Shown: positions 8,310 through 52,396, counted from the stretch's first letter. The stretch is DNA of 64,000 bases from Elusimicrobiota bacterium (GCA_028718185.1 JAQUMH010000002.1:4088-68087), one strand, 5' to 3'. A program made the numbers and translations. The notes: generated by a model from the letters alone, not told the origin.

Positions 8310-8348
8310 TTTTAAATCAAATATTCAGTATTCTTAAAATTAAAACTT

Positions 8349-20397: not shown

Positions 20398-23300
20398 TCA
20401 TTTTATCAGTCCTACCTTCCCGGTCTTCTTCCTGCCTGTAGCGTCTCTTATCTGATAAATATATACTCCTCTGGCTACTTTGTCTCCATCGTCATTCTTG
20501 CCATCCCACTCAAGCCAGCCAAGATTACCAAAGTCTGCCTCTTTGAGTTCCCTTGCCAATTCACCGGATACAGTGTATATCTTCATTTCACTGTTTATAG
20601 GCAGGTTTATTACCTTTAACTTACCACCTACCGCCATGTTAGGTTTATATGGGTTAGGATATACTTTCACATTACTCAGGTCTGTCGCAAGATAACTGCC
20701 CAATATACGATATGTTGTGAATCGTTTCACATTCGCTGTTATTGTCTTGTTTAGCTTGTCTACTATATGTACTCCAGGCACCAATTCCCACTCCCTACCG
20801 TTCCATGAATATATCCTTAATCCTTCTTCCTTTAATTCACCTATATCCACTAACGTGTATGGGATTGTTATGCTTATCGGCTTTGTAAATATATCTTCTT
20901 CCAATACCGATGTCTTATTTGTAAATGACAATCTTCCAAAATCATAACTTATGGGTTTCACGGTATCTACATATCTCGCTGCGTTTCTTACTACCGCCGG
21001 CGTCTTTGTCTTTATCACTGCCAAATTCCTGGTTTCTGTCAATACGTTTTCGCTCACTATTATCTTTAGTTTGTTTACTCCTTTTATCATTCCGCCATTG
21101 TTTCCTATTGGTTTTGCAAGATACATATCGTTGATATTTGTCAGGGTAGGCAACATGCTGTCTCCGGTAACTGATACTGTCTCTATTTCACTATTGAATG
21201 GTATTGATATCTCCCTTTCTCCTGTATCTTCTTTTGTCAGTATTGCGTCTGCAACGTTCAATATACCGGTTTTTGAGTTCTTTGTTGATAGTGTTAGTGT
21301 CCCGCTGTAATCCGTTGTGGGGTTATTGTCATTTGTATTGTATACTTGTGCTTTGAATTTCAAGCTTGATACTGTTATAGCTGGGTCTAATGACGCTGTA
21401 TCTAATGTCGGTCCGTCTTCGTAGTAATATGACTTTAAGGTGTTACTGTACTTTATAATAGGTTTTGGTGGTGTAGCGAGTCCTGTTACTGTCTCAAGAC
21501 GAACATCATCTATGTAATATGTATCGCCTGCAGTCGCATATGGCGTAAACCAGAACCGGAAACGTCCATCGGTTACCGGAGCTGTAAAGCCTGTGGTGAT
21601 AAATTCGGTAGTAAATGTCTGCCAGCTTGTGCCAAGGTTCGCTGTGTAATTCAAACCGTAGTCTGTGTATGGGGTCCCATGCTTTAACAAGTGTACTGTT
21701 ACGGCATGTCTGGTTGGCGAATAGGCTGTAAATATCAATCTATATCTGGTATTAGGGTTAAGGCAAATTCCTGTCTGGTATAATTGGATGTTACCATTGG
21801 CAGCGGTTATTGTACATTTGGCGGATTTGGCTCCTTCAAAACCTGGTGTTGTGCTAATAAATGTGCCTCCGCCACCTGCATAATATGCCCAGGAATCTGT
21901 ACCTGATTCAAAGCCGGCATTTATAACATGATTTGTGCCGGAAGAAGTGCTTAGTGTGCTGAACGTATAATTTTCGCTTGTTGCTATATTGCCGGAACCA
22001 TCTTTACTTGTTACATGGTAATAATATGTAGTACCTAACGTTAAGCCGGTTATGTTAACGCTATGGCTTGTTACTTTTGTTGTATCTGATGTCGTTGAAA
22101 TACCATATAGTGTTGTTGTACTGTACTCTACCTGTGAATCGCTTGGTTCATTGGTGAGCCAATTTATTACTGCGGAATTCCAGGTTATATTGCTGGATGT
22201 AACGCTCGTTATTATGGGCGGGGTTGTATCAGGTGGGACTGTTTCAAGGTGTATATCGTCTACGTAATACACATCACCTGCTGCTGCATATGGGGCATAC
22301 CACAACATTAAACGGGCATCAGTAACAACAGACGAAAATCCGGTTGTTACAAATTCGGTGGAATATGTCTGCCAGCTTGTGGTCAGGTTCGCCAAATAAT
22401 TATCCAAACCATAATTGGTATATGGGGTGCCGTGTTTGAACACGCGCACTGTCATATCATGTCCTGTATTGGAATAGGCTGTAAATGTTAATTTATATCT
22501 GGTATTCGGATTAAGGCAAATTCCTGTCTGGTATAACTGGATGTTACCGGTGGATTTGGTTATTGTACATCTGGCGGACTTGCTACCTTCAAAACCGGGT
22601 GATGTGGTAACAAACGAGCCTGCTTCTTCGGTATAAAAAGCCCAGGATGTTGTGCCTGATTCAAAACTATGATTACTTATGAAATTTATGTCGCTTGTAA
22701 ACGTATTGTCTTCGCTTGTTGAAAAATTACCTGATTCATCTCTGCTGCTTACCCTGTAATGATATACTGTACCAGGCATTAATCCTGTTATATTAGCACT
22801 GTGATTTGTTAACTTAACTGTACTTAACACTGTTGAGTTTCCATATGATGTTGTTAGTCCGTACTCCACCTGCGAATCGCTTGGTTCATTGGTTATCCAA
22901 TTTACTAATGCGGAATTCCAGGTTATATCGCAGGATGTAACGCTCACTATTATTGGCGGGGTTGTATCAGGTGGAACTGTCTCAAGATGTACATCGTCTA
23001 CGTAATACACATCTCCTGCTACTGCATATGGCGCATACCAGAACATTAAACGGGCATCAGTAACTACAGACGAAAATCCGGTTGTTACAAATTCGGTGGA
23101 AAATGTTTGCCAGGTTGTGGTCAGGTTCGCCAAATAATTACTTAATCCGTAGTTGGTATATGGGGTGCCGTGCTTGAACACGTGCAATGTCATATCACGG
23201 CCTGTATTGGAATATGCTGTAAATGTTAATCTATATCTGGTATTCGGATTAAGAACGATATCTTTTTGGTATAACTGGAGGTTACCGGTGGATTTGATTA

Positions 23301-26300
23301 TTGTACATCTGGCAGACTTGCTACCATCAAAACCAGGTGATGTGGTAACAAACGAGCCTGCTTCTTCCGTATAAAATGTCCAGGATGATGTGCCTAATTC
23401 AAAACTATGATTACTTATGAAATTTATGTCGCTTGTAAACGAATTATCTTCACTTGTTGCAAGATTACCTGCTGTATCTTTACTCTTTACCCTATAATGA
23501 TATACCGTACCTGATGTTAATCCGGTTATATTAACGCTATGATTTGTTACCTTAACTGTATCTAACACTGATGAGTTACCATATGATGTCGTTAGTCCGT
23601 ACTCCACCTGTGAATCACTTGGTTCATTGGTTAACCAATTTATTACTGCGGAATTCCAAGTTATATCGCTGGATGCAACATTCGTCATTATCGGCGGGGT
23701 TGTATCACTCATCACTTCAAACTCTGTTGTTGCAGATGAAGCATTACCTGCTAAATCAATAATATTTACTTTGCAAGTGTATGTACCGGAAGAAACATTT
23801 TGCCCAATTGTATTTTTGCCATCCCACTCACAACTATAATTTCCAGCAGGTACAGCCAAATTACTTATAAGGGCTCTTGTTAGTACATCATTATTGTAAA
23901 TTTCAACATTTATTACCGATTCTTTAGATAGAACAAATGAAATTTCTGATTTAATCCTTGCACCATCTGGTGATATTACTGCAGCAGATACCGATAAATT
24001 AGTTATCTGTGGTAAAGTGGTATCTCTTGTTATTGATGTTATTTTTGATTTAGGGCTATCAAACGGAATATTATTAAACCACCTCGTCGTTTTTGCAAAT
24101 ATTGGATTTGCTCCTTCTGAAAGCGAAATTTCTGCTGAAAATCTGCCATTACTATCTGCTTTTACTGTCTTCAAACTAGCACCGTCATTATATACTGTTA
24201 CATCTGCAACAGCTTCTACTACGCCTGTAATTGTTATATATTGCTGGTTTGTTATTGTTGATATATTTGCGTCAAATTCAGGTATTGGCACTTGTGGGAT
24301 TATTAAATACTGCGAAAATCCTACTACTTCACAACTTACTTCAAAAATATCGTTCTTCCCTGATGCATCTTTTTTCCACCCTAAACTTGTTAGTGTTGTT
24401 GGTTTTACTTTGCCATTACTGTCGACATGATATGCAGTGAGTTTTCCTATATCTACATTTGTAACTTCTTCAGGTAAAAATCGCACTGTTAAAACAGCAG
24501 GAGCAACTAATTTACCATTTCCATCTTTATTAAATTGTATATCTTTTGGTTCCATATCAAATAACGCACCAAGAGGCAGAGGCATACCTGTATCAACAAT
24601 AATATCTGTATCTGACAATTTTACTGGTGTTATGCTTACAGTGGTTGGTTGTAATAATGAATCAGTGTAAAATTCTAAATATGCTTTGTTCCATGGTGCT
24701 GATACATATTTATGTTCGCCAGGAAATACTTGTTTACCAACATATACTGTTTGCTCTATTTCTTTTACACCATTACCGGCAAATACATATAACTTTATTT
24801 TGTACTCTCCATTAAGTCCTGATACATCCCAAAATGATAGTGTATTATTTGAAACAGGTTGAGTGGATATTACCGGTATGGTTTTCAATATTGTATCGCC
24901 TGTCTTTTGATAGAACATTGAATATCCCTTAAAATCACTCCCAAACGCACTACCTTTTATCTCAACAAATCTTTTTGGTGCCGCTTCATCTGTTGATATT
25001 TTTACGGTAAAGTCGTCATTAATATCATTACTATCTGTGTTTGATGCTTTGGTAAGTTTCTTATCCACTACCAAATCATTACACATAGTGCCGTCTGGAT
25101 ATTGCAATTTTATGTCCCATTGTTTTTGAGTATCATAATTATCTGCATCAATCCACACATAAGGATTGTCTATAGTAGTTCCATTTTGTTTCCAAAAAGT
25201 ATATTTGTTTTTAATTTCATCGGGGTTATTCATATTTACCAAAGGATATGCTGCAGAAATCGTTATTGGTCTATATCGGTCAGCAACTGTTGGTTCAAAA
25301 GGTCCTTCTATTACAAAATCTGCTTGAAGATTATTACCACTATTATTAAATTCATTATTTTTACTAATGATCTTATGTTCTGGCAATCCTTGGTCATCTG
25401 TTGTCATATCCCATGATTCTTTCTCGTTGGTTGTCGCTTTTAATTCTAAAAGACCTCTTTCTTCTACTATTGTTTTAAGGACTTTAGGATTTGTTTGAGT
25501 CACAAATGTATAAGGAGATGATGACGGAATATAGTCATACGGTATTCTTATTTCTTCAATTGAATTGTAAGTATCGTGCCCATTATAACAAGTATTATTT
25601 ACAGTTACTGAAGGTTCGTAATTTGCATTTATTTTTACTTCACGTAAAACAGGAGTTTTACTTCCATCATTTGTAGATAAAGTTGCTTTCCATCTGATGT
25701 ATTTTCTTGGTGTTGAGTAAATTGGCTGACCAGGGGTTGCTGTTCTTTCAGATTCCCAACTATATCCATCATCACTCGTTTGAGTCGTATAAGTGATATT
25801 CGTTCCTGAAGGTTTGTATTCAGATACCTCAAAATTTCTCCAAGACGATGGTGCTGTTTTACAATCGTGTGCTTGAGAAATAAGTGTTCCAACTAAACCA
25901 AAATTCTGAGTGACATTGTATATTACTGGAGTTGTTTGTAAATCACGAGTAGCAAAATCTGCCCTCCATTTAAAATACCGTTTCTGACCAAGTGATGGCA
26001 CTACTCCATTTTCCACTATTGGGGCGGCTTCCCAGTTAATATTTTCTCCAGAACTATTGTAGCTTGCAATCCTATATGTTATGTGAGCCCCTCCTAAATA
26101 ACCTACATTATTTTCATCACTCGTTTGAAATAAGTTCCAAATTGGTGAATAAGAATATGTATCATGTTCTTGTGAAATAAACACACCTGTATTTTCATAT
26201 CGTTTTTGGTATCCCTCTATACTATTAAGAAATAAATATGCACCATGATTTGAATTGTGGGGCTGCACAAGGATCTTAAAATATGGTGCATAAAATGGTG

Positions 26301-29300
26301 TGGGAACTTCTTCATCAAATGAAATATTTATACTAGAACCATGAGAAACTACCTGACTCCAATACTTGTAAGTTGTCCATGGGCCATTTGAACTATTGCC
26401 GTATTGCAAGTAGATATTAGCACCACAATTATTTCCATCTTTATGCCATACAGCAACACTTCCTACTACCCGTAATCTATAAAATTTATAATGCCATGGA
26501 TATATAGGTGGTACACCTTGAGGAGGTCCTGAACGACCACAAACAAACGCCCAAGTGTTTCCATACCCAGCCCATGCAGGCCAGACAAGAGTACTATCAT
26601 TTCTATCATTTGCATTTGTCCAAGATGAACTAGGAGCAAGCGGATAATTACCCGAAATATCATCGTATTGTTCATGTATTGCATCCACAACATATTGACT
26701 AAACTGAACTTTATTATCAGCAATTATAAGAGTAGGTGTTTTTTGCCCATTATAAAAAGTAGAAATATCATCATATTTTTTGGTACATATCTTAACATTA
26801 CCCGACTCTGAATTTAGGTCAATATTACTTATGCCTCCTTGTCCAAAATCTTGTTGTGATGTTTGTATCCACGACTGTGCAGCATGTGTTTGCACAGTAG
26901 CAGAAAATGATTGCGGTGAATAATATTCCCCCTTTTTTACAGTTGCGGACCAGTTGAAATTAGAAGACCCTTGATTAACTGAATATGGTGCTGGTGAAGT
27001 AATTTCTGCTAACCCACTTCCTGGTCCTCCAATAACTGCAATTGAAACTGACGCGGAACCTTTTGTCTGGTCATCTACTGCAATAACATCTATCTTGCAA
27101 GTATATAACCCTTCTACAATACTACTCCAGACTGTTGTATACTCTGTCAACCCAGATGTAAATTCATTATCAACCATCTTTACAAGATTACCTACTGTAT
27201 CATAAATAGTAATATATACTGTAGCTGCTTTTGTCAGTTCATATGTAATTTGGACTGGTTCATTTAACAAGACATCTGATTTGTCTGATTCAAATTTTGT
27301 AATCTTTAGTGGTTCTGTTATGGTTACATTTACATTTACACTAACAGATTTCTTATCCATCCCGAGACCGTCTATATCTACTGCTGTTAATTGTATCCTG
27401 TAAATCCCATTTTGCACATACTGTTTTCTAAAATCCTTACCATCCCACTGTATTGTTTCACCAGCAGTTTTATTAAAATATTCTGAATGTAAAATTACCG
27501 GACCAAATGTGTTGACATCAACCATCTTAAAAATATCCAGTACCACATTTGACTTTTTGCCGGTATTCTGCATTAAAGTATATGAGATATTCAATTTATC
27601 ATTTATTGTGGTTATATTAAACACCTGGTCAGAAATAGGTGCTGTGATATTAAGTATCGGCTTGTCAGTTTCTGGAATTGTATTGTCCACTTTTACCGAT
27701 ACTGTTATTGCACTGTAGTTTGATGGCATAGCACTATCCTGTGCAACCAATAAAATTGTATAGGTACCATTTGGTAAAGATGATACATCCCAATACGCTA
27801 ATGTTGAATTTAGTATTGCTCTGTATGATGCATTAGAATTTGGATAATTTACATCATTTGGACTTTGATTTGACACAGGTACTGGTATCGATTTCCATAC
27901 ATTCATATCTGGACTTATGTAATTGTCTGGTGTCGCATTACTATAAGTAGCATACCATACTTTGTAACACAAAAAGTCAATATTATCATTTACTACTGGA
28001 TCTATTGCTATACCAACTATTTCTACTTGATTACCAACTATGCCATTAAATACTGGTGACACTATTTGGGCAGGTATCTGATTTTTTATTACATTTACCG
28101 TCTCTTCTGCTTTATTTCCTACTTCATCTGTTGTCTTTATTTTTATAACATAACTTCCATCACTTGCAAAACTGTTATCTTGTTTCTTTCCATCCCATGT
28201 ATAGGAATATAACACATCTTTTTGTTTTACCTCGGATATTGGACTTCGGACTATCTGTCCTAATATATCTTCAACAGCTACCTCTACTGTTGCATTATCA
28301 CTTATCTTATAATATGCTGTTACAGTATCATTTTTAAGTTCTGGATTAAATATTTGTATATTTGTGTAAAGTGTGGTTACAAATGACGGTGTTCTATCTA
28401 TCTTAAATGTTTGCAATATTGGAATCGTATTGCCTATATTTCCAGATTCATCTGTTGCTTTTAATCCTAATGTATACTCTCCATCAGACGCAGTATTCCC
28501 CAACGCATCTGTCCCATCCCAAGCATATAGAAGATTTTGTGTTATATTCGGTGTAACTACAAAATCTGTTACTTTTGTAAACAATCTTGTTCCTGATGTA
28601 AAAGTAAAACTCACCTTTGCTGATGGTGAAAATCTATCAAATATATCAAATGATATATCTACACTTTTATCATTTTTAGTAAAAATATTATGGGAATAAG
28701 CACCAGGATTTATATATATACTGCCATTTGATACCTGTGGTGGTGTTATGTCTACAATTATATCGCCTTCATATACCTTTAAGTTCTCTGCCTCATCAAC
28801 TGCTGTTATTTTACATTTGTAAATCCCTTCTGCTACTACTACCCCATTGGTATTTTTACCATCCCATATATCTAAATTTGCCCCTATATTCTTTGAAATA
28901 CTATCAATAAGTGTTCTTACTAAATTATTCTGTAAGTCATATATTTTTATTGTTGTTTTAATCACTGTTGAGAAATTATCCGATAAAGTATAATCTATCG
29001 TTGTTGCCTCTTTTATTCCATCACCATTAGGTGAGAATGCAAGACAGGAATAACTCGTTATATCTGGTGGAGTTATATCGTATCTCAACGTAACTGTTGC
29101 ATTTTTAGTGTAGTCAGTATTTCCAGCATTATCTTTAAGCCAGATATATAATATATTATTCCCTTCAACAACAGAGAAATTGGAAGTAAATGTTTGAGTA
29201 TTAGGAATATAATTTGCAGGTTCCGTATTTAACTTATAATATGCTCCTGCTATTCCTGATAAATCAGAAGGAGTTGACCATGATATGGTAAATTGTGTCT

Positions 29301-32300
29301 GGTTTGTCCAACCGGATGGTGAAACAGATAAAGATTGTGGTTTATCTGGCGGGGTCGTATCTACTATTATTCCATCACTGCTAACCGGGGTCTCGGAACC
29401 AGCTCCATTTTTCGCTTTCACTGTAAAATAATAAATACCGTCATCTAAAGGTGAATCAAATGTCCTAGTTATATTACTAAGTGTTCCTGTTGATGTTAAA
29501 GCGATAATATTATACCATCCAGTATTCGGATATTGTGATGTTCCTATTGCATATTGATATTCCACAATTCCAGAGATATCCTCGGTAAAACTCCAATTAC
29601 AAGAAAGTTGTGTGTTATTGTTTGTATATAACCCATCATTAATTGATACACACATTGGCGAAGTTGTATCAATCATTACACTGCCTCCTGTTAGCCATGC
29701 ACTCCATCTACCTGCCCCATTTTGAGCACGAACTTTTGCAAAATATGATTGACCATGAATAAGACCATCTACAGTATAATTTGTTTGACTATTTGGAACA
29801 TCTGCTTGTGCTATTAGGCTATCTGTGATGCTATTATAAATTGCAATATTAAAATTAGATATACCACTTTCCATATCGGTAGCAAAATCGCCTTCCCATG
29901 TAAATGTTACTGTTGTAGAAGAGGAATAGGCACCTCCTGCAAATCTTGGTGCCTTTGCAGGACCACTAGGCATTTCTGGGTCTGTTGTATCAAGATAAAT
30001 TTCATCCTTTATTTCTACTATAGAAATATTTCCTGCTTTATCTTTATATCTCGCCCATACCGTTTTATTACCTGCTCCTGCTGTCAACCACCAAGGAGAA
30101 TAAATATGTGTATACTCAATCCAATCTCCAATAAAAATTATTCCATCATAAGAAAACTGCATCCAACCAACTTCACTATTATCTGAAACTGTGGAATACA
30201 AACTAACTTGCTGACTACCTGTAAAATTTTCTAACGGTGCAAATGTATCTCTAATAAGTAAACTTCCAATCGGTGGGGTAACATCAATCATAAACTCTTT
30301 ACCAATAGTTGGTGTAACATTTGTAGCAATATTCTCTCCAATATCTTTTCCACTTATGGTAACGGAAACCATTCCTTCAACACCAGGACCAGAAACAATA
30401 TTTACTTCACCTTTATACACATTCCCTGATACAAGTATGGTTGCTACTTCTGTTTTATCATTCACAGTACCAGGAGCATCTATACTGAATGTTGGGTTGG
30501 CAGATAATTGTTCACTTGCAGTTATTTTTAGATAAATTGTTTGTGCTTTAGTTATTGGCTTTCCTGTATAAGTTGCTAATGGTTGTGTAAGATTTGAATC
30601 TGCAAAATATTCTACTGTGAAATTTGGTGGTATCATTGCTATTAAAGAGTAATCTAAATTATTAGCAAAAGCGTCTGTATTGCTTGGTATAACAATAACT
30701 TTGGAACAAGTTGTATCAAAATTGGAAATGGATACGGTATTACCAGTTTTATTTAAATCATTTTGTTCTTCTATAGTGCCATCCATTTTAACTTTCAACA
30801 CTTTGCCACCCCATAATGGTGTAACTACTGATGAATCAAAATTAAGGAGAAGCGTTTGTGGAGTTGGTTTATCAGGTGCTGGACGAAATTCAAAATAGTG
30901 ACTTGCAAGATGCATAACAGTATTAACTCCTGATGGGTATTGGTATTTAGCAGAAGTATCTAAAACTGTTATCTTCGGATAAGAATTACCTTCAATATAA
31001 TATTTAGAAGCATCATAATTCCAAACAGTAAATGTCTTAAATTCATTAGATAAACTTGTTCCATGACCTGATATTAATTCGCTATCAATTGCCGACAAAG
31101 AATCGGTAGTTTTACATATATCCCAAATCTGGCGAATTATATCTTTCTCATTAAATCTCTCGGAAAAATATTTTGCAAAAATACAGGAACCGTATTCATT
31201 CCAATCATTTATATAATCCAATGATTGAGTAGAATTTGCAAACCAAGATGGCTTTCCAGCAAATCCTTTAAGATATTGTAAATAGTCATTTACATTAGGA
31301 TAAATTTCATCTTCCATCCAGACAGATGTAGCTTCATTCCACCAATAATTATCATCTCTTGGATTATAACTACATTTAACAGCATGAAAAAACTCATGGG
31401 CGGAGGTAATCTGCATAGCATCTGTACCATGTGTATAAAATTTATCACCAATATAATCATTGTCTACCTGAATTATAGAACCTAAAATTGGATGTTTATA
31501 TGCAGTGCTTCCATATGCGCCATTTCCTAAATTTAAAATATAAACAGGTAATTTATTTTCAATTACAAAATATTCTGATGGTGGAGATTCATAACCATAT
31601 GAACCAGGTTTCACTATTTGGTTCCAACTATATTCAAAATACTGTCCAAAATTATATACATAATCGGGAATACCATTGTGTGATTGCCAACCTGCTGAAT
31701 TGACCTGATTAACATCAGGATTTGAAATTGTATATGCTCTAAAATGAAACTTAAAATTAGTGGTTTTATAAACGCCGTAAGTGTAATATACATCTTTTAT
31801 ATTGCTAACATTACCAGCAACATCCCACACTTGTATCATTATATGATTTATTCCTTGGCGAAGATTAATATTATCAAACGATTTAGTATCATTTGTGCCA
31901 TTTACGTATTGTTCTTTTGCTGGTCCTATTTCTGGTATTACCACTATTTTTTCCAATTGAATCGTATCTGACACAGTAACATTTATTGTTATTGTTTCAT
32001 TTTCTCCTTGATTTTGGTCAGGAGGATTAAATGAGACCACGGTAGGTTTAGTTTCATCAAGTATAATGGAAGTGGAAACAAAGGATGATATATTACCTGC
32101 ATAATCTTTAACTCTAAAATATATTGTTTTTGCACCTTCGCCAGTAGAATTAATATAATAAGATTTTGATATAGAATAATCTTCCCAAGTTGATGGCCAA
32201 TTATTAGAATCCTCAGTAAATTGCATTTTCGCCACACCGGAAGTTGCATCACTTGCTAATAACGCTAATGTAATAATTCTATTATTAGTAAATCCCGTAC

Positions 32301-32976
32301 CAGGAGAAGTAATTAAAACAGATAATCCACTCGGAACTGTTTTGTCTATCTTTACAGTTTGTGAATGAGTGGCTTCGCCATTACCAGTATTATCATATGA
32401 CCAATAGTAAACCGTATGCTCTCCATTAGCCCCAATTGCGAATGGCGTAGTGTAAGTTTGAGCAGACAAGTCACCATCAACCAGGTAAAGCGTTTTATTA
32501 ACTCCAGATGTTACATCATAAGCATTTAACGTTACCGTAACATCCGATTTATACCAACCATTTTCGCCGAATGTCCCTGATAAATTACAAGTTGTTGATG
32601 GCGAATATGTATCAAGGGTTATGCTATCATTTGTACTTCCTATATCAGTTGGGGAATAAGTAGTTACAAACACTTTCATATATACCGTTTTATTGCCATC
32701 TCCACTGCCTCCACCGTAAGCAGTCAAGTCCCAGCTGTATTTTATAGAACTTATTCCTTCCCAAGGGGACCATGACGAATTGTTGTTACTGAATATCATC
32801 CATTGAGCATCGGACGGTATATTACCGATGGTTAGCGTTGTGTATTTATAATTTGTATAATCAGCACCCGAGTTGATGTTCAAAGTTAAACCTATTACTC
32901 TTTGAGCGAAAGAAAATAAAAATACAAAACCTATAAAACATCTTAGTAAATAATAAAATTTAAATTTTTTATACAT
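20398..32976 (-). CDS. Giant (4192 aa) secreted multidomain surface protein: signal peptide, Ig-like/OmpL47-type domains, an HExxH metalloprotease-like domain, a series of FlgD-Ig-like domains, 3x (FN3 + CBM4/9-like) and a T9SS-type C-terminal domain
   Basis: A single uninterrupted 12.6 kb frame with a hydrophobic N-terminus. It contains HEFFHAV...NEATSVWMEDE and repeated ..SPNGDGIKE...WDGKN..G..V..G.Y motifs. Three units start TPPI(I/M)..V.S.DITWNSA.(V/I)NW.TNEPSDSQVEYG and continue N(H/A)(S/G)FE.G...W...YY(V/I)DD(V/I).LE. The C-terminus reads VYPNPYKP...GVYIYQI. Confidence 0.9.
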   Translation of the reverse strand: MYKKFKFYYLLRCFIGFVFLFSFAQRVIGLTLNINSGADYTNYKYTTLTIGNIPSDAQWMIFSNNNSSWSPWEGISSIKYSWDLTAYGGGSGDGNKTVYMKVFVTTYSPTDIGSTNDSITLDTYSPSTTCNLSGTFGENGWYKSDVTVTLNAYDVTSGVNKTLYLVDGDLSAQTYTTPFAIGANGEHTVYYWSYDNTGNGEATHSQTVKIDKTVPSGLSVLITSPGTGFTNNRIITLALLASDATSGVAKMQFTEDSNNWPSTWEDYSISKSYYINSTGEGAKTIYFRVKDYAGNISSFVSTSIILDETKPTVVSFNPPDQNQGENETITINVTVSDTIQLEKIVVIPEIGPAKEQYVNGTNDTKSFDNINLRQGINHIMIQVWDVAGNVSNIKDVYYTYGVYKTTNFKFHFRAYTISNPDVNQVNSAGWQSHNGIPDYVYNFGQYFEYSWNQIVKPGSYGYESPPSEYFVIENKLPVYILNLGNGAYGSTAYKHPILGSIIQVDNDYIGDKFYTHGTDAMQITSAHEFFHAVKCSYNPRDDNYWWNEATSVWMEDEIYPNVNDYLQYLKGFAGKPSWFANSTQSLDYINDWNEYGSCIFAKYFSERFNEKDIIRQIWDICKTTDSLSAIDSELISGHGTSLSNEFKTFTVWNYDASKYYIEGNSYPKITVLDTSAKYQYPSGVNTVMHLASHYFEFRPAPDKPTPQTLLLNFDSSVVTPLWGGKVLKVKMDGTIEEQNDLNKTGNTVSISNFDTTCSKVIVIPSNTDAFANNLDYSLIAMIPPNFTVEYFADSNLTQPLATYTGKPITKAQTIYLKITASEQLSANPTFSIDAPGTVNDKTEVATILVSGNVYKGEVNIVSGPGVEGMVSVTISGKDIGENIATNVTPTIGKEFMIDVTPPIGSLLIRDTFAPLENFTGSQQVSLYSTVSDNSEVGWMQFSYDGIIFIGDWIEYTHIYSPWWLTAGAGNKTVWARYKDKAGNISIVEIKDEIYLDTTDPEMPSGPAKAPRFAGGAYSSSTTVTFTWEGDFATDMESGISNFNIAIYNSITDSLIAQADVPNSQTNYTVDGLIHGQSYFAKVRAQNGAGRWSAWLTGGSVMIDTTSPMCVSINDGLYTNNNTQLSCNWSFTEDISGIVEYQYAIGTSQYPNTGWYNIIALTSTGTLSNITRTFDSPLDDGIYYFTVKAKNGAGSETPVSSDGIIVDTTPPDKPQSLSVSPSGWTNQTQFTISWSTPSDLSGIAGAYYKLNTEPANYIPNTQTFTSNFSVVEGNNILYIWLKDNAGNTDYTKNATVTLRYDITPPDITSYSCLAFSPNGDGIKEATTIDYTLSDNFSTVIKTTIKIYDLQNNLVRTLIDSISKNIGANLDIWDGKNTNGVVVAEGIYKCKITAVDEAENLKVYEGDIIVDITPPQVSNGSIYINPGAYSHNIFTKNDKSVDISFDIFDRFSPSAKVSFTFTSGTRLFTKVTDFVVTPNITQNLLYAWDGTDALGNTASDGEYTLGLKATDESGNIGNTIPILQTFKIDRTPSFVTTLYTNIQIFNPELKNDTVTAYYKISDNATVEVAVEDILGQIVRSPISEVKQKDVLYSYTWDGKKQDNSFASDGSYVIKIKTTDEVGNKAEETVNVIKNQIPAQIVSPVFNGIVGNQVEIVGIAIDPVVNDNIDFLCYKVWYATYSNATPDNYISPDMNVWKSIPVPVSNQSPNDVNYPNSNASYRAILNSTLAYWDVSSLPNGTYTILLVAQDSAMPSNYSAITVSVKVDNTIPETDKPILNITAPISDQVFNITTINDKLNISYTLMQNTGKKSNVVLDIFKMVDVNTFGPVILHSEYFNKTAGETIQWDGKDFRKQYVQNGIYRIQLTAVDIDGLGMDKKSVSVNVNVTITEPLKITKFESDKSDVLLNEPVQITYELTKAATVYITIYDTVGNLVKMVDNEFTSGLTEYTTVWSSIVEGLYTCKIDVIAVDDQTKGSASVSIAVIGGPGSGLAEITSPAPYSVNQGSSNFNWSATVKKGEYYSPQSFSATVQTHAAQSWIQTSQQDFGQGGISNIDLNSESGNVKICTKKYDDISTFYNGQKTPTLIIADNKVQFSQYVVDAIHEQYDDISGNYPLAPSSSWTNANDRNDSTLVWPAWAGYGNTWAFVCGRSGPPQGVPPIYPWHYKFYRLRVVGSVAVWHKDGNNCGANIYLQYGNSSNGPWTTYKYWSQVVSHGSSINISFDEEVPTPFYAPYFKILVQPHNSNHGAYLFLNSIEGYQKRYENTGVFISQEHDTYSYSPIWNLFQTSDENNVGYLGGAHITYRIASYNSSGENINWEAAPIVENGVVPSLGQKRYFKWRADFATRDLQTTPVIYNVTQNFGLVGTLISQAHDCKTAPSSWRNFEVSEYKPSGTNITYTTQTSDDGYSWESERTATPGQPIYSTPRKYIRWKATLSTNDGSKTPVLREVKINANYEPSVTVNNTCYNGHDTYNSIEEIRIPYDYIPSSSPYTFVTQTNPKVLKTIVEERGLLELKATTNEKESWDMTTDDQGLPEHKIISKNNEFNNSGNNLQADFVIEGPFEPTVADRYRPITISAAYPLVNMNNPDEIKNKYTFWKQNGTTIDNPYVWIDADNYDTQKQWDIKLQYPDGTMCNDLVVDKKLTKASNTDSNDINDDFTVKISTDEAAPKRFVEIKGSAFGSDFKGYSMFYQKTGDTILKTIPVISTQPVSNNTLSFWDVSGLNGEYKIKLYVFAGNGVKEIEQTVYVGKQVFPGEHKYVSAPWNKAYLEFYTDSLLQPTTVSITPVKLSDTDIIVDTGMPLPLGALFDMEPKDIQFNKDGNGKLVAPAVLTVRFLPEEVTNVDIGKLTAYHVDSNGKVKPTTLTSLGWKKDASGKNDIFEVSCEVVGFSQYLIIPQVPIPEFDANISTITNQQYITITGVVEAVADVTVYNDGASLKTVKADSNGRFSAEISLSEGANPIFAKTTRWFNNIPFDSPKSKITSITRDTTLPQITNLSVSAAVISPDGARIKSEISFVLSKESVINVEIYNNDVLTRALISNLAVPAGNYSCEWDGKNTIGQNVSSGTYTCKVNIIDLAGNASSATTEFEVMSDTTPPIMTNVASSDITWNSAVINWLTNEPSDSQVEYGLTTSYGNSSVLDTVKVTNHSVNITGLTSGTVYHYRVKSKDTAGNLATSEDNSFTSDINFISNHSFELGTSSWTFYTEEAGSFVTTSPGFDGSKSARCTIIKSTGNLQLYQKDIVLNPNTRYRLTFTAYSNTGRDMTLHVFKHGTPYTNYGLSNYLANLTTTWQTFSTEFVTTGFSSVVTDARLMFWYAPYAVAGDVYYVDDVHLETVPPDTTPPIIVSVTSCDITWNSALVNWITNEPSDSQVEYGLTTSYGNSTVLSTVKLTNHSANITGLMPGTVYHYRVSSRDESGNFSTSEDNTFTSDINFISNHSFESGTTSWAFYTEEAGSFVTTSPGFEGSKSARCTITKSTGNIQLYQTGICLNPNTRYKLTFTAYSNTGHDMTVRVFKHGTPYTNYGLDNYLANLTTSWQTYSTEFVTTGFSSVVTDARLMLWYAPYAAAGDVYYVDDIHLETVPPDTTPPIITSVTSSNITWNSAVINWLTNEPSDSQVEYSTTTLYGISTTSDTTKVTSHSVNITGLTLGTTYYYHVTSKDGSGNIATSENYTFSTLSTSSGTNHVINAGFESGTDSWAYYAGGGGTFISTTPGFEGAKSAKCTITAANGNIQLYQTGICLNPNTRYRLIFTAYSPTRHAVTVHLLKHGTPYTDYGLNYTANLGTSWQTFTTEFITTGFTAPVTDGRFRFWFTPYATAGDTYYIDDVRLETVTGLATPPKPIIKYSNTLKSYYYEDGPTLDTASLDPAITVSSLKFKAQVYNTNDNNPTTDYSGTLTLSTKNSKTGILNVADAILTKEDTGEREISIPFNSEIETVSVTGDSMLPTLTNINDMYLAKPIGNNGGMIKGVNKLKIIVSENVLTETRNLAVIKTKTPAVVRNAARYVDTVKPISYDFGRLSFTNKTSVLEEDIFTKPISITIPYTLVDIGELKEEGLRIYSWNGREWELVPGVHIVDKLNKTITANVKRFTTYRILGSYLATDLSNVKVYPNPYKPNMAVGGKLKVINLPINSEMKIYTVSGELARELKEADFGNLGWLEWDGKNDDGDKVARGVYIYQIRDATGRKKTGKVGLIK
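20401..20670 (-). other. T9SS-type / FlgD-Ig-like C-terminal sorting domain of the giant protein (last ~90 aa)
   Basis: The sequence is VKVYPNPYKP..KLKVINLP..MKIYTVSGELAREL....WDGKNDDGDKVARGVYIYQIRD...GKVGLIK. It fits the Por-secretion CTD pattern (YPNP at the start, G.Y near the end). Confidence 0.65.
21492..23706 (-). repeat. Intragenic tandem triplication, 3 x 738 nt (246 aa each: FN3 + CBM4/9-like module)
   Basis: The equivalent Asp codons of PPDTTPPI lie at 23704-23706, 22966-22968 and 22228-22230, an exact 738-nt period. Units 1 and 2 look about nine-tenths identical at the nucleotide level over the stretches compared by eye. Unit 3 is clearly more diverged. Confidence 0.9.
31333..31398 (-). 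other. Putative zinc-metalloprotease active site (HEFFH at residues 527-531, candidate third-ligand Glu at 548/555)
   Basis: The reverse complement of 31384-31398 encodes HEFFH. It is followed by AVKCSYNPRDDNYWWNEATSVWMEDE, which resembles the thermolysin-type HExxHAV plus downstream E arrangement. Confidence 0.55.
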
Positions 32977-32981
32977 AAAAA

Positions 32982-34172
32982 CTATTGTTTTTTCTTAATT
33001 AAAATAATATTTATTTCCTTTGTGCTGGTATTCCCATAACAATCAGTGGCAACTACTTTAACTTTATTTACTCCTTCTTTTTGAAGATATGGTTTAATAT
33101 CATCCAAAGAATATACTTTTTTTCTGAAGCTAGTAGTAAAATTATATGGGGACCCAAAACTTATACGTTTGTTATTAGAATATGTGCATAATAATGTTGG
33201 ACTACTATCTCCATATATAAACTTTATTGAACCATATATCTTGCCTTTCACATATTCTTCATATGGTATCTCATCAAACTTTTGCCCATCTTCTACACCT
33301 TCTATCTCTATTGTGGGTGGGGTAATGTCTGTTTTGGCTTTCGGTGGATAAACAATCCAAACACTATCAAAATCCTCTTGCATCGCAAACTTACTTCCTT
33401 CATTCTCTGCACCAATACTAACATTCCAGATTCCTGTTGATGGTAATACCCCCGTCTCACTGAAATTATATATATTTTGTCCAGGAGGACCATATAATTC
33501 TACAAGTCCAGGTTTATCTTTAAACTGTTCTTTAAATTCAAGATAATATTTTCTACCTCGTTCTTTTCCATACATCTTCTCTTGATATATTTCTTCCGGT
33601 AATATATGTTCCACTTTAGATAATTTTATCTTTTGTTTTTCTGTTATACTTACATCTCCAATTTTTATCCAAGCATTTGTTACATTATAAACCTCTGGCG
33701 TTTCTATTGTGCCTTTTATTACTATATTAGACGAATCTACCACTTCACTATCTTTTGGTTCAATTATCTTAACAATAGAACTTTGCTCGCTATAAAAATT
33801 TAATCTATTTTTCCATGTTATTATTTTTATTTTCTTCTTGTTCACCTCACTTAACTTATTCCATATATTTTCTAATTCTCGTTGAATATCTAATGTAGAA
33901 TTCTTTTTCTGATACAATCGCATATTAGGCTTCTTATATTTTTGAGGTAAAGAATCAGGATCATTTATGCAGTAGAACTTATACATAAATGCCGTCTCTT
34001 CATCTATAATTCCTGCATGCCGATCATCTTCCACCAAATTCCACGACCTTTTTTCACCAGGGTTAGAAACCGCTTCCCTGGCAAACATTATGCCGATTCC
34101 TCCAATCAAATCAACAAATAAACAAATTAACACCCACTTGTTAAACAATTTTCTTATCAACATTTTTTTCAC
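32982..34172 (-). CDS. Hypothetical membrane-anchored protein (396 aa), no family recognised; its stop lies 5 nt before the giant-gene start
   Basis: It has an N-terminal TM (WVLICLFVDLIGGIGIMF). The rest looks predicted beta-rich (VVATDCYGNTSTKEINI is an Ig-like-type ending). The tight spacing suggests translational coupling. Confidence 0.6.
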   Translation of the reverse strand: MKKMLIRKLFNKWVLICLFVDLIGGIGIMFAREAVSNPGEKRSWNLVEDDRHAGIIDEETAFMYKFYCINDPDSLPQKYKKPNMRLYQKKNSTLDIQRELENIWNKLSEVNKKKIKIITWKNRLNFYSEQSSIVKIIEPKDSEVVDSSNIVIKGTIETPEVYNVTNAWIKIGDVSITEKQKIKLSKVEHILPEEIYQEKMYGKERGRKYYLEFKEQFKDKPGLVELYGPPGQNIYNFSETGVLPSTGIWNVSIGAENEGSKFAMQEDFDSVWIVYPPKAKTDITPPTIEIEGVEDGQKFDEIPYEEYVKGKIYGSIKFIYGDSSPTLLCTYSNNKRISFGSPYNFTTSFRKKVYSLDDIKPYLQKEGVNKVKVVATDCYGNTSTKEINIILIKKKQ

Positions 34173-34260: not shown

Positions 34261-35262
34261 TCACTCGCTTCCAAAACTATAACCAATTGATACTCTTTGG
34301 TTTGGGTTAAGTGTTTCAACCAAACCAATCCCATAATCAACTTTTAATCCTTTCATTTGGAAACCTGCGCCAAGAGTAACCTTATCAATATCATATCCTA
34401 CTTTATAGCCAAATCGCAGAAATACTGTTTCTTTGAAACTATACTCAATACCAATGTTTTCCCTTATATTACTTTCATTTGGTTTAACTGTGTCAATGGC
34501 AATCAAAAAACTGTGATTTTGTAATACCGTTTTATTATATGCTATTCCTAACCTTATGTTCATAGGAAGTGCGTCTCCCTGTTCAATGTACTTCAGTTTT
34601 GTCCCTACATTTTGAACAGCAAGTCCTGTTGAAAGTCCATCAACGGTTGTATAATATAAAATACCAAAATCCACTGCATATGCAGTCCCTGAATATGTTT
34701 CTACAAGTTTGGATGAAAGATACTTTGCAGTTAACCCTAATGAAAAATTATTGAAAATTTCTTTGCCATAACCTATTGTTCCAACTATATCCTGCTGTGC
34801 TTTAACATTCCTTGAAGTACCATCAAGATTATTCCATTCAAAATTACCACCATCATAATAAAGAAAACTTGCTCCAAAACTGCCTATTCCATTTGATGGC
34901 GTTCCTACCCATCCAACTAAACCGTAATTTTCATCTACTCTGCCTTTTAAATACATACTCGCTATTTCATTACCTTCTATATTTACCAAACCTGCCGGGT
35001 TATAATAAAGTGCATTTGTGTCATCACATACAGCAACAAACGCTTCACCCATACCTACAGTTCTGGCACTTACTGTCTGATTTAAAATCCTTGCACCGGA
35101 GGTACCAGAACCAGCATAAAGACAGGAAGTAGGGAGTAGGAAGTAGGAAGTGGTAAAGGCAATAAATAAAACCAGAGATTGCCACGAGCCAATTGACATC
35201 GGCTCTCGCAATGACTTCCTTTCTAAAATTTCTCTAAACATAACACACATCCTAAACATCAA
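34261..35262 (-). CDS. PorV/PorQ-family (UPF0164-like) outer-membrane beta-barrel protein; the true start is probably Met22 at 35199
   Basis: The motif GARILNQTVSARTVGMGEAFVAVCDDTNALYYNPAGL matches the PorV/LptO N-terminal signature. Amphipathic beta strands alternate through to the C-terminal ...IGYSFGSE. Confidence 0.6.
   Translation of the reverse strand: MMFRMCVMFREILERKSLREPMSIGSWQSLVLFIAFTTSYFLLPTSCLYAGSGTSGARILNQTVSARTVGMGEAFVAVCDDTNALYYNPAGLVNIEGNEIASMYLKGRVDENYGLVGWVGTPSNGIGSFGASFLYYDGGNFEWNNLDGTSRNVKAQQDIVGTIGYGKEIFNNFSLGLTAKYLSSKLVETYSGTAYAVDFGILYYTTVDGLSTGLAVQNVGTKLKYIEQGDALPMNIRLGIAYNKTVLQNHSFLIAIDTVKPNESNIRENIGIEYSFKETVFLRFGYKVGYDIDKVTLGAGFQMKGLKVDYGIGLVETLNPNQRVSIGYSFGSE
35124..35215. 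repeat. Repeat modules forming the 5' end of the PorV-like ORF (7-nt AGGAAGT/AGGGAGT units plus a family A half-element GAGATTGCC...CTCGCAATGAC)
   Basis: AGGAAGTAGGGAGTAGGAAGTAGGAAGTGG at 35124-35153 and GAGATTGCCACGAGCCaattgacatcGGCTCTCGCAATGAC at 35175-35215 were read directly. They are translated as ...REPMSIGSWQSL...TTSYFLLPTSCL. Confidence 0.75.
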
Positions 35263-35285: not shown

Positions 35286-38200
35286 TCATTTCACAACGCA
35301 AATCTTTTTTGTTTGTTTGAATCCTGGTCCTTCTATATGAATATAATAAATTCCTGAAGCAACTACTTCTTCTTCACTATTTTTACCATACCAATTTTCT
35401 GAATATGTTCCCGCAACCACATCCTTATCAACAAGTGTTTTTATAAATACACCGTCTATCGTGTATAGTTTTATTGTTATATGTCCTGCCTGTGGTACAC
35501 TGTAATAAACTTTACAAATATCACCTTTTATTGGATTAATCACATTATTTACAGGCAATATATGGTCTTGTTCAAGTTTTGCCTGATGCGAAGAATACAG
35601 ATTAACCAAATAAATATCACCACCATAATTACAAACCACTTTTGTACCGTCGAGTGAAAATCTTGAGTTATCATACCCAAAAACATAAGATGCAGGAGTA
35701 AGTTGCTGCCTTTCAGAACCATCAGGATTGGAAATAACAATTTTACGATTCAATAAGGATTCATCAACATATGTAATTTTTGAACCATACCAGTCAATAC
35801 CCCATTTAGTGAGTTGATAAACCATACCAGTTACTGTATCAATTACTCTATCATAATTAACAACTTTTGTAGCATCGGGAGACCATCCGATATCCCATAT
35901 GAACCATATATTACCATCTTTTGTGATTTGTGTGTTTGTTCCATTCTCGTATATCCACAAATCACCATTATAATAATAGGCAACTTTAGAACCAGAAGGT
36001 GAGTAAATCGGATAAGACCCAATCGCAATTTTTTGTTTACTTGTACCATCACTGTTTATAATGTATGTTCCTGAAACACCGCTTATTGTCCCAAAGAAAA
36101 CAACTTTTGTTCCATCTGATGAGAATGACGGTACACTATAGGAAACAAAATCAGGAAAAGAAACAAGTTTGATAAGCGAAGAAAAGTTACTAATAACAAG
36201 TTCAGTTCCTAAAATGAATGTAATTTTTTTATTATCCTGTGACCATCCGATATAATATGTTGGACTGGCGCTATCAACAGAATAAACCGAATTCCCATAA
36301 ATATCTTTCACTTTTACATAATATCTACCATTATAAAGATAAGAATACGCAACTTTAGTGCCATCGGGCGATAATACTTCAGATAAAAACGATGTTGTGC
36401 TAGTTTCAATCAGTGTCTCATTTTTCCCATTCACATCAATAGACTTTAATTCTTCTCTGTCTTCATAATTAGCATTATAAATAATTTTTTGTCCAGCATC
36501 AACCAAATTAAAGTAATAAGATAAGGTATTATTTGTAAGATTTTTCTTATTAGTAGCATCTGTTTTTATCGTATATATATTTTGTTGACTGCCACAACCT
36601 ATACGATCGTTGGTAGGTGAGAATGCAAAAAAGTCATAATCTTCAACAATTTTTATATTTCCGGTTCCATCACTGTTTATGATATAACATGAATTGGAAT
36701 CAGCGTAATAATTATAACCGAGATAGCAAACCTTTGAACCATCAGGTGACCATTTAAATTTATAGTAGTAGTATCCAGCGGTTGTTGTTAACTGTATATT
36801 TCCGGTTCCATCAGGATTAATTGTGTAAAGGTAATCACTTGGAGAGGAACCATAACAGTAAACAATTTTATTAGTAGCTGACCAATCAGGGAAACTTCCA
36901 TCACATAAATAATTTGGCGCACCACCTGTTGACGTTATAATATTTATATCACCTGAAAAATAATATACAATTTTATTACTATCAGGTGCCCATGAATAAC
37001 CCGCCCAACACTCTGCAAGATACATATACCCTGTTCCATTAATATTTATTACTGAAAGCCTATTACTATCTTTAATAAATGCTATTTTTGTGCCATCAGG
37101 TGATACTTTAATATCTTCCATTGTTGATGTAGATGTATATATTACAGTTTTTCCTGAACCGTCATTATTCATAGTACATATAGAATAATTTAAAACGGTA
37201 TCATTTGCTCTGACATATATAATTTTGCTCTGCCCGAAAATAAACTTTGCACCCAACTCAACATATTCATCATTCGTAATTTGTTTTTTATTAGAACCAT
37301 CTGCCGACATAATGTAAAGGTCAACACCATTTTCATTATTCAGTGAATAGACAATTCCTGCTGATGACCAGTCAAAAGCAGTATATTCGGCACGGCTTCC
37401 GGTTAATCTTGTTGTCCAACCTGCAGTTCCTTTTGCTGTGCTTTCAATCGCAATCCCTGTAAAATTCTGGTCTGTTTGATTCGCTGAAAGATTAGAATAA
37501 CTTTTACTTTCCGGTGAGAATGTATAATTTGTCTTTGTCGGTGTAACAGTAAAATTCCCTCCTTCAGAAATACCTGTGAATTTATAATATCCTGTTGCTG
37601 TTGTAGTCGAAAATCTTAAATCTGCACCAGTTAAACACACCAGAACACCATTGATTGCTGTCCCTGAATTATCTTTAACATAACCCGCTATTGCAAAAAG
37701 TTGAGGGGTAGAAACATCGGGTGCATCAATAGAATATGTGGCTCCAATTGCTAATGTATTCCATTTATCATATGCTTGAAAATAATATATATAATCAGTT
37801 CCGGAGGATAAATTTGTAGAATATGTAAAGAGTTTGCCATCAGAATATGAGGTATCGTTGACATCAACTTCGTTCATTATATAGGTTTTTGTTCCTTGCC
37901 AACTCGCACCTAATGCTGTGGATATTACAACTCTTGGATAATATGATTCTGGAGCATCATCATCGGCATCTGTATATTTTACTCTACATGTGAATATTGT
38001 TGAAGGACTGCCTGTTTCAGGATTTAAGCCATCAGAAGTATAATTTGTCTCACCTGTCCACGAAAGCACAGGTGCTGTATTGGTAGAACGATAATTAAGA
38101 TACCCTGACCAACTATTATAAGAAAATTTAAGTTTCAGGTAATATATCTGTGATGATGTTGCATTATAATTAAATGGATCACCAGATGAACTACTTGCTA

Positions 38201-38510
38201 CTTGATTTGTTCCTGCAGAATCGCTGTAGAGGTAAGCATTGCAATTATTGGAATAATTGGTAAAAGAAAAATAATATATTGTGCCTGCTGTCATTGATAT
38301 CTTAAACCAATCTGTTGTATCTGTTGCAGATAAATCGTGTGGTCCATCTGATTGGGTAGTTGCGGTAGGTGTTATAACTGTTCCATTTACTGCATTATCA
38401 TCTGTCGGATCCCATGCATCTGCATAAAGATAGGTAAAGAATATAAATTGAACTAAAAAAAGAAATAAAATGTATTTTATGCAACAGGGAAACTTTAATC
38501 TAATCTTCAT
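35286..38510 (-). CDS. 1074-aa secreted protein: PPC-like domain, CarboxypepD_reg-like domain, multiple TolB/PD40 beta-propeller repeats and a T9SS-type C-terminal domain
   Basis: It has a signal-like N-terminus and FAIAGYVKDNSGTAINGVLV...GYYKFTGI. There are at least 7 motifs of the S(P/S/L)(D/S)G(T/S)K(V/I) type. The C-terminus reads ..ITIKLYTIDGVFIKTLVD...GIYYIHIEG. Confidence 0.75.
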   Translation of the reverse strand: MKIRLKFPCCIKYILFLFLVQFIFFTYLYADAWDPTDDNAVNGTVITPTATTQSDGPHDLSATDTTDWFKISMTAGTIYYFSFTNYSNNCNAYLYSDSAGTNQVASSSSGDPFNYNATSSQIYYLKLKFSYNSWSGYLNYRSTNTAPVLSWTGETNYTSDGLNPETGSPSTIFTCRVKYTDADDDAPESYYPRVVISTALGASWQGTKTYIMNEVDVNDTSYSDGKLFTYSTNLSSGTDYIYYFQAYDKWNTLAIGATYSIDAPDVSTPQLFAIAGYVKDNSGTAINGVLVCLTGADLRFSTTTATGYYKFTGISEGGNFTVTPTKTNYTFSPESKSYSNLSANQTDQNFTGIAIESTAKGTAGWTTRLTGSRAEYTAFDWSSAGIVYSLNNENGVDLYIMSADGSNKKQITNDEYVELGAKFIFGQSKIIYVRANDTVLNYSICTMNNDGSGKTVIYTSTSTMEDIKVSPDGTKIAFIKDSNRLSVININGTGYMYLAECWAGYSWAPDSNKIVYYFSGDINIITSTGGAPNYLCDGSFPDWSATNKIVYCYGSSPSDYLYTINPDGTGNIQLTTTAGYYYYKFKWSPDGSKVCYLGYNYYADSNSCYIINSDGTGNIKIVEDYDFFAFSPTNDRIGCGSQQNIYTIKTDATNKKNLTNNTLSYYFNLVDAGQKIIYNANYEDREELKSIDVNGKNETLIETSTTSFLSEVLSPDGTKVAYSYLYNGRYYVKVKDIYGNSVYSVDSASPTYYIGWSQDNKKITFILGTELVISNFSSLIKLVSFPDFVSYSVPSFSSDGTKVVFFGTISGVSGTYIINSDGTSKQKIAIGSYPIYSPSGSKVAYYYNGDLWIYENGTNTQITKDGNIWFIWDIGWSPDATKVVNYDRVIDTVTGMVYQLTKWGIDWYGSKITYVDESLLNRKIVISNPDGSERQQLTPASYVFGYDNSRFSLDGTKVVCNYGGDIYLVNLYSSHQAKLEQDHILPVNNVINPIKGDICKVYYSVPQAGHITIKLYTIDGVFIKTLVDKDVVAGTYSENWYGKNSEEEVVASGIYYIHIEGPGFKQTKKICVVK

Positions 38511-52292: not shown

Positions 52293-52303
52293 ATATTAAG
52301 AAA

Positions 52304-52396
52304 CACGAATTATCACGAATGTTATGACACATCACGAATTTATCACGAATATTCGTATCCTATTCGTGATTTTTTGGTTATTCGTGTTCATTCGTG
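52304..52396. repeat. ~93-nt imperfect palindrome built from 4 direct CACGAAT units and 4 inverted ATTCGTG units, symmetric about 52350/52351
   Basis: CACGAAT is at 52304, 52314, 52333 and 52344. ATTCGT(G) is at 52351, 52362, 52380 and 52390. The central ACGAATATTCGT is a perfect 12-nt palindrome. The last unit supplies the final codons (IHE-stop) of the 726-aa ORF. Confidence 0.8.

Follow-up and report, generated by a model that had tools for sequence, protein, structure and literature searches.

The closest named relatives of the protein described here belong to the MXAN_6640 family of putative metalloproteases, whose typical members are secreted proteins of 500-730 aa, with a median of 585 aa. 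A literature search found no functional or biochemical study of any member of the MXAN_6640/DUF6055 family; the sole trace it found is a fungal DUF6055 protein that has been placed in the MEROPS family M106 and called "not properly described" (PMC11241649). The nearest relatives of solved structure are lugdulysin and hyicolysin from the MEROPS family M30 (PDB 7bb8 and 7bb9). In lugdulysin, a tyrosine located 70 residues after the second zinc-motif histidine, Tyr315, is mutated in PDB 7bb9 (E242Q Y315F, according to the entry title). A third described system is the T9SS, whose cargo proteins, such as gingipains, PorZ, and mirolase, belong to Bacteroidota and the FCB group.

The locus considered here lies in a 64,000-nucleotide stretch of DNA (hereafter the window), whose minus strand bears at 20398-32976 an ORF of 4192 aa. 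The product of this giant ORF is identical to NCBI MDD5687129.1, a protein annotated as "carbohydrate binding domain-containing protein" and encoded on a 301-kb contig of an Elusimicrobiota MAG. Residues ~401-698 of the giant are probably an active zinc metalloendopeptidase of the MXAN_6640 family, situated distally on a surface-anchored carbohydrate-binding protein that would be exported by a T9SS-like route.

Modular Organization of the Giant Protein

The following parts of the giant can be distinguished, from the N-terminus to the C-terminus:

32890-32976, minus strand: putative signal peptide, aa 1-29, MYKKFKFYYLLRCFIGFVFLFSFAQRVIG, recognised from the sequence itself
31777-32604, minus strand: Ig-like / OmpL47-type beta-barrel modules before the protease domain, aa ~125-400 (NCBIfam NF047446, three stretches, E 8e-30)
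30883-31776, minus strand: catalytic domain of the MXAN_6640 family, a predicted gluzincin, aa ~401-698
30607-30882, minus strand: beta-sandwich, aa ~699-790, located behind the catalytic domain in the small homologues too
27337-30606, minus strand: stalk of FN3, Big_13, and FlgD-Ig modules, aa ~790-1880
24277-27336, minus strand: central ~1000 aa with almost no recognisable family, aa 1881-2900
21487-23709, minus strand: three tandem repeats of 246 aa, each consisting of FN3 (Pur_ac_phosph_N-like) and CBM_4_9, aa 3092-3829 (CBM_4_9 in three stretches, E 8e-37)
20401-20664, minus strand: putative T9SS-type C-terminal sorting domain, aa 4105-4192

The initial annotation had proposed OmpL47-type folds around the zinc motif and FlgD-Ig, FN3, and CBM modules in the rest of the protein. 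Both proposals hold, the former by the NF047446 matches listed above, which are accompanied by weak matches to Big_7 and Big_13, and the latter by four matches to FlgD_ig, four to fn3, and three to CBM_4_9. The beta-sandwich resembles a pre-peptidase C-terminal / collagen-binding domain. In the central part, aa 1881-2900, weak matches to Big_6, Glucodextran_B, and Por_Secre_tail-like models occur at the edges alone, and no sequence match was obtained in the PDB. The FN3-CBM_4_9 repeats begin at aa 3092, 3338, and 3584 and are 66-84% identical to one another in pairwise comparison.

It is this architecture that sets the giant apart from its family. Of the 258 family proteins examined, no other exceeds 1250 aa, and the giant has the longest flanks, with 396 aa before the domain and 3515 aa after it, the next largest C-terminal extension being 852 aa. 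At the best 80 loci, taken from 185,579 species genomes, the corresponding ORFs reach 861 aa at most, the median being 619 aa. The catalytic domain and the beta-sandwich thus appear to be a module that normally makes up a secreted protein of ~600 aa with a T9SS-type C-terminal domain; the same module would have been fused into the 4192-aa protein near its N-terminus, where it is preceded by a putative signal peptide and Ig-like modules. The giant fusion architecture, in Elusimicrobiota, is new, while the family itself is already known and named.

The HEFFH Motif and Family Membership

The putative catalytic residues lie at the following positions:

31384-31398, minus strand: HEFFH, aa 527-531, two putative zinc-binding His and the putative catalytic Glu528
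31333-31335, minus strand: Glu548, invariant, most likely the third zinc ligand judging from the helix register of the model, within WWNE near the start of the helix that follows the HExxH helix
31312-31314, minus strand: Glu555, invariant, two helical turns past Glu548, a putative second-shell residue
31192-31194, minus strand: Tyr595, invariant, 64 residues after His531, a candidate catalytic residue

The initial annotation had reported HEFFH at residues 527-531, within the range 31333-31398. Translation of the reverse complement of this range gives HEFFHAVKCSYNPRDDNYWWNE, which confirms the motif; the codon of His527 occupies 31396-31398 on the minus strand, the codon of Glu548 is the last one in the range, and that of Glu555 lies outside it by 21 nt.

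A pentapeptide of this type may arise by chance in a non-enzymatic Ig-like region, and the shortness of the motif is the sole point in favor of such a reading. HExxH occurs once in the 4192-aa protein, against a chance expectation of 0.024 per protein calculated from the residue composition, the surrounding sequence matches a family domain with E 4e-53, and the motif is invariant among homologues. The idea of a chance motif has therefore been rejected, its probability being practically nil.

The family assignment comes from NF045524, "MXAN_6640 family putative metalloprotease", which matches aa 431-698 over model positions 16-290 of 290 with 180.9 bits (E 4.4e-53), well above the curated cut-off of 140 bits; a model of this name had been among those recommended for a profile search of the region. 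Pfam is less informative, as aa 343-729 match no peptidase family and no DUF6055 model (PF19527) even at E <= 10. PF19527 does match 26 of 41 aligned homologues, and from these profile matches the domain of the giant is taken to be related to DUF6055 but beyond the reach of the Pfam model.

A search with aa 421-810 against 5.8 billion proteins gave 140 relatives, 25-37% identical among the 120 listed. Nearly all of the matches listed are 400-670 aa long; many combine PF19527 with a T9SS C-terminal sorting domain (PF18962) or FlgD_ig, and several bear the name "MXAN_6640 family putative metalloprotease". The family is very large, because a profile of the catalytic domain alone matches 10,200 of 1.84 billion cluster representatives at E <= 1e-3 (3,228 at E <= 1e-30), the clusters being counted at 50% identity. 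Hosts at the best 80 genome loci include Zixibacteria, Latescibacterota, KSB1, Calditrichota, Ignavibacteria, Gemmatimonadota, and Nitrospirota, as well as Actinomycetota (Nocardioides/Marmoricola) and some Bacillota; none of these 80 loci carries an Elusimicrobiota title, several being labelled just "bacterium". The domain of the giant is at most 37% identical to those loci, and its best identity to any NF045524 family member is ~32-37%. It has in common with the family the AHEFFH...E....W.E[DE]...Y signature, the beta-sandwich behind the catalytic domain, and a T9SS-like C-terminal domain at the protein end.

Predicted Fold and Conserved Residues

An AlphaFold2 model of aa 343-729 has a pLDDT of 75 on average and exceeds 90 across most of the catalytic core; confidence is low in some loops and in the initial, truncated Ig domain. 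In the model, a helix of aa 517-537 bearing HEFFH is followed by a 3-residue turn and by a second helix of aa 541-558 that bears both Glu548 and Glu555. This is the gluzincin arrangement for which a structure prediction had been suggested in the initial annotation. A Foldseek search against the PDB ranked lugdulysin (M30) at the top (E 1e-5), followed by collagenase T (M9) and then by M1 aminopeptidases; all top matches are MA(E) enzymes, and the same ranking was obtained with a model of a small homologue, P0002.

On the basis of the model, the domain is assigned to the gluzincins of clan MA(E), with M30 and not M4 as the nearest solved relative. The likeness to lugdulysin and hyicolysin concerns the three-dimensional fold, as modelled, whereas the sequence identity to lugdulysin is 15% and the N-terminal region differs. 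The Pfam model PF10460 (Peptidase_M30) does not match the domain of the giant and matches 2 of the 41 homologues weakly (E 0.036). Thermolysin (M4), M1 aminopeptidases, and M9 collagenases have structural scores clearly below those of M30 and differ in accessory domains, and no family HMM for M4, M1, or M9 matches the domain of the giant. Thus, the description of the motif as thermolysin-like stands at the level of the clan and fails at the level of the family: membership in M4 has been rejected, since there is no M4 profile match and thermolysin is not the closest fold, and we regard it as very improbable.

In the 41-sequence alignment, where overall identity to the domain of the giant is 24-32%, the invariant columns are A526, H527, E528, F529, F530, H531, E548, W553, E555, and Y595, so that H527, E528, and H531, singled out for a conservation check, have all proved invariant. 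The same columns are invariant in an alignment restricted to the catalytic domain. HExxH is present in 256 of the 258 family proteins, in 215 of them in the form HEFFH, and the whole pattern HExxH..E....W.E[DE] is found in 249.

These data bear directly on the question of whether the domain might be a catalytically dead binding module, that is, a pseudo-peptidase serving solely as a part of an adhesin. The rest of the giant is indeed built from binding and stalk modules, and the activity of the family is a predicted one. However, pseudo-enzymes usually lose catalytic residues, whereas here every expected catalytic residue is kept and is invariant across homologues at ~30% overall identity; a dead module is accordingly quite unlikely, and an active metallopeptidase remains the preferred reading.

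Profile searches against PDB sequences, made with both the full and the catalytic-only alignments, gave just CTD/FlgD matches or noise. Because there is no PDB sequence match, no residue-level alignment of the domain with lugdulysin and the M1 enzymes can be made, and helix register and analogy serve to assign putative roles to Glu548, Glu555, and Tyr595. In the helix hairpin defined by the AlphaFold2 secondary structure, Glu548 is about as far from the turn as His531, and Glu555 is level with His527. The placement of Glu548 relative to His531 is that of the thermolysin ligand Glu166 relative to His146, and the local WWNE is similar to the "NE" ligand motif of gluzincins such as thermolysin and M1 enzymes. 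Glu548 is thus most likely the third zinc ligand. Because it is level with His527, Glu555 fits a second-shell carboxylate orienting the first histidine, which is its likely role; alternatively, it may itself be the third ligand. Tyr595 is a candidate for transition-state stabilization and parallels Tyr315 of lugdulysin.

Gene Neighborhood and a Putative C-Terminal Sorting Domain

The giant is the last of four genes on the minus strand, which are preceded one by another in the order: 1074-aa protein, PorV/PorQ-family protein, 396-aa ORF, giant, with gaps of 23, 88, and 5 nt. The first two are as follows:

35286-38510, minus strand: 1074-aa protein with TolB/DPP5-like beta-propeller repeats and a C-terminal domain of the same type as that of the giant, the first gene of the string
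34261-35262, minus strand: PorV/PorQ-family outer-membrane protein gene, two genes upstream of the giant (NF033709, 176.4 bits, cut-off 90; Pfam PorV, E 2.8e-9)

The C-terminal domain of the giant matches the CTD of PorZ (5m11_A, residues 664-748) with E 6.4e-5 and shares 33% identity with the C-terminal end of the 1074-aa neighbor (E 8e-9). It also gives weak matches to CHU_C and FlgD_ig. In contrast to the T9SS cargo of Bacteroidota and the FCB group, the host here is an Elusimicrobiota MAG, and the curated type-A CTD model stays below its threshold (TIGR04183, 17.3 bits, cut-off 23). Adjacency of a PorV gene was also considered as a family-wide trait and rejected, being seen at 1 of 80 loci. 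The surroundings of the gene for P0001, the closest homologue, gave no further clue.

The operon also contains genes for a PorV-family protein and for another protein with a CTD, which may suggest that the protease acts on its own surroundings, processing or shedding the giant itself or the co-encoded CTD protein, and not external substrates. Processing of this kind has precedents, as M30 and M4 enzymes self-process. Nevertheless, the same module occurs in thousands of free secreted proteins of ~600 aa without such a partner, and the PorV adjacency is limited to the one locus in 80, so that action in cis or on a partner is an unlikely substitute for the degradation of external proteins, which we continue to favor.

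A Family N-Region Encoded by the Upstream ORF

The remaining gene of the string, located between those of the PorV/PorQ-family protein and the giant, carries a segment that elsewhere in the family belongs to the protease itself:

32982-34172, minus strand: 396-aa ORF directly upstream of the giant, its stop codon 5 nt before the ATG of the giant, in a different frame
33798-34031, minus strand: family N-region on the 396-aa protein, aa ~48-125, detected by tblastn, phmmer, jackhmmer, and a family-only HMM

The N-region is a helical segment found directly before the catalytic domain in ~55% of MXAN_6640 family members. When the neighbors of the giant were compared with the 80 loci by tblastn, aa 5-89 of the 396-aa ORF matched, at 3 loci, a segment that immediately precedes the catalytic domain. 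A phmmer search found 19 family proteins, with the match always at that N-terminal position. A jackhmmer search from which the signal peptide was left out reached convergence with 145 of the 258 family proteins; with the signal peptide included, 142 were found, and in these a median of 3 aa separates the end of the N-region from the catalytic domain. An earlier HMM built from all N-terminal regions, a mixed and poorly aligned set, had no match in the window. The family-only HMM of the N-region (152 rows), when run against the 503 ORFs of the window, has the 396-aa ORF as its single match (E 6.3e-7); when the filters are switched off, the runner-up among the ORFs reaches 4 bits. The segment itself scores 28.6 bits compared with <= 7.4 bits in 1000 shuffles. 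The giant lacks the N-region, both in the jackhmmer search among the 258 family proteins and in the HMM search of the window ORFs. The separately encoded N-region is a new feature of this locus and was missed in the initial annotation.

It has also been considered that the two ORFs are one gene broken by a sequencing frameshift. This was rejected, as the junction contains stops in both frames and the giant begins with its own putative signal peptide. The rest of the 396-aa protein shows no significant similarity to the first 400 aa of the giant, and a search of 5.8 billion proteins for homologues of the 396-aa protein found only itself.

One can imagine, then, a split enzyme or zymogen, in which the 396-aa protein supplies the N-region in trans, whether to assist folding, to keep the enzyme latent (as an inhibitor), or to serve as a permanent subunit. 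The position of the N-region in 145 of 258 family proteins immediately before the catalytic domain, its restriction within the window to the 396-aa ORF, and the spacing of 5 nt between two genes on the same strand all speak for such a division of labor. The N-region also looks like a folded element, with four helices at a pLDDT of ~90 in the P0002 model. The match of that homologue to mature lugdulysin is not extended by it (276 aligned residues with the N-region and 273 without), which indicates that the N-region lies outside the mature M30 core, as expected of a pro-segment. On the other hand, ~45% of family members have no N-region, so it is inessential for the fold. The Cys of its "kCaTP" motif, conserved in 69% of members, is replaced by Ser in the 396-aa protein. 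Moreover, this protein has no detectable homologues elsewhere, and the segment may be a mere relic of gene rearrangement. On balance, supply of the N-region in trans is possible though doubtful. The more specific proposal that the N-region on a secreted 396-aa protein might associate in trans with the catalytic domain and regulate the time or place at which the protease of the surface fiber is active, as may be read from the sequences, is a shade more tentative still.

A split enzyme extends the explanation given above and does not exclude it. A point against activity should be mentioned in this connection, namely that the N-region is missing in cis, and activity could suffer if the N-region were needed for folding.

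Proposed Mechanism and Biological Meaning

If the mechanism is that of gluzincins in general, a single zinc ion would be bound by Glu548 and by two histidines of the preceding helix, His527 and His531, Glu528 would activate the zinc-bound water, and Tyr595 would stabilize the tetrahedral intermediate, with Glu555 probably orienting His527. The giant would be exported and held at the cell surface via its C-terminal end; its CBMs would attach to a polysaccharide surface, where proteins would be cut by the protease at the opposite end of the giant. The extracellular degradative or predatory/attachment role proposed in the initial annotation is therefore plausible as far as the domain content allows one to judge. 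One paper reports cellulose-bound Elusimicrobia that carry CBMs and have no cellulases (PMC7031533); an attachment role for the CBMs of the giant would agree with this, although the paper does not deal with the giant itself.

The locus leaves the general understanding of zinc proteases unchanged. Its meaning lies rather in the family and in the organism. The MXAN_6640/DUF6055 family is spread over many little-studied phyla with an intact gluzincin site, so that any handle on it is useful, and the giant is an extreme case within it, coming from Elusimicrobiota, a phylum with few cultured members. A protease carried on a CBM-bearing surface protein of 4192 aa points to particle attachment coupled to protein degradation. 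Finally, the relocated N-region is a natural experiment on the role that this segment may play across the whole family.

The giant protein

The zinc protease domain of the giant surface protein is overlooked by standard annotation: the public record names the protein solely after its carbohydrate-binding domain, and the Pfam DUF6055 model gives no match to the diverged domain copy, so that the protease domain remains invisible there despite a score above the cut-off of the NCBIfam model for MXAN_6640 family metalloproteases.

30883-31776 (-), protease domain, an annotation gap
24277-27336 (-), central ~1000 residues (aa 1881-2900)
21487-23709 (-), three tandem 246-aa FN3+CBM4_9 repeats (aa 3092-3829)

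Except for weak matches at its edges, the central region matched no family in Pfam, and no match was found among PDB sequences. The FN3+CBM4_9 repeats share pairwise identities of 84% and 66%, which indicates a recent internal duplication.

Flanking genes

32982-34172 (-), immediate upstream neighbour of the giant gene, an ORF of 396 aa
33798-34031 (-), family N-terminal helical region on this ORF
19521-20165 (-), small M50-like membrane metalloprotease gene just downstream of the giant gene

The helical region carried by the 396-aa ORF is the segment that precedes the catalytic domain in ~55% of MXAN_6640 proteins, and it is missing from the giant protein itself. The remainder of the ORF is Ig-like in appearance, and a search for its homologues detected none.

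In a KSB1 MAG (locus L025, region 6829-8619), a homologue with 44% identity to the M50-like metalloprotease is located two genes downstream of a MXAN_6640 family protease; the ORF before it is similar to a portion of the 1074-aa protein listed below. Conserved synteny of the M50-like gene with a family protease is possible, the arrangement being seen in only one of the 80 best genome loci with such a protease.

Elsewhere in the window, four consecutive paralogous genes (50448-58787, (-); 614, 726, 654 and 753 aa) encode a protein O-mannosyltransferase-like domain, of TMEM260-like or PMT_2 type, followed by C-terminal TPR repeats, and two PilT/T2SSE-type ATPase genes lie side by side (40663-43975, (-)), adjoining a gene for a cNMP-binding and GAF-domain protein. 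Three further large proteins have DUF-type assignments only:

47192-50413 (-), DUF4175 protein, 1073 aa
58754-60808 (-), GATase1_like/YtkA protein, 684 aa
44231-45766 (-), DUF2851 protein, 511 aa

A possible T9SS-like cargo cluster

34261-35262 (-), PorV/PorQ-family outer-membrane protein gene
35286-38510 (-), gene for the 1074-aa TolB/DPP5-like beta-propeller protein

Both genes belong to the same gene string as the giant, and the C-terminal sorting domain of the 1074-aa protein is of the giant's type. This shared domain, together with the common string, hints at a T9SS-like cargo cluster, formed by the PorV/PorQ gene, the 1074-aa protein and the giant, in an Elusimicrobiota genome.
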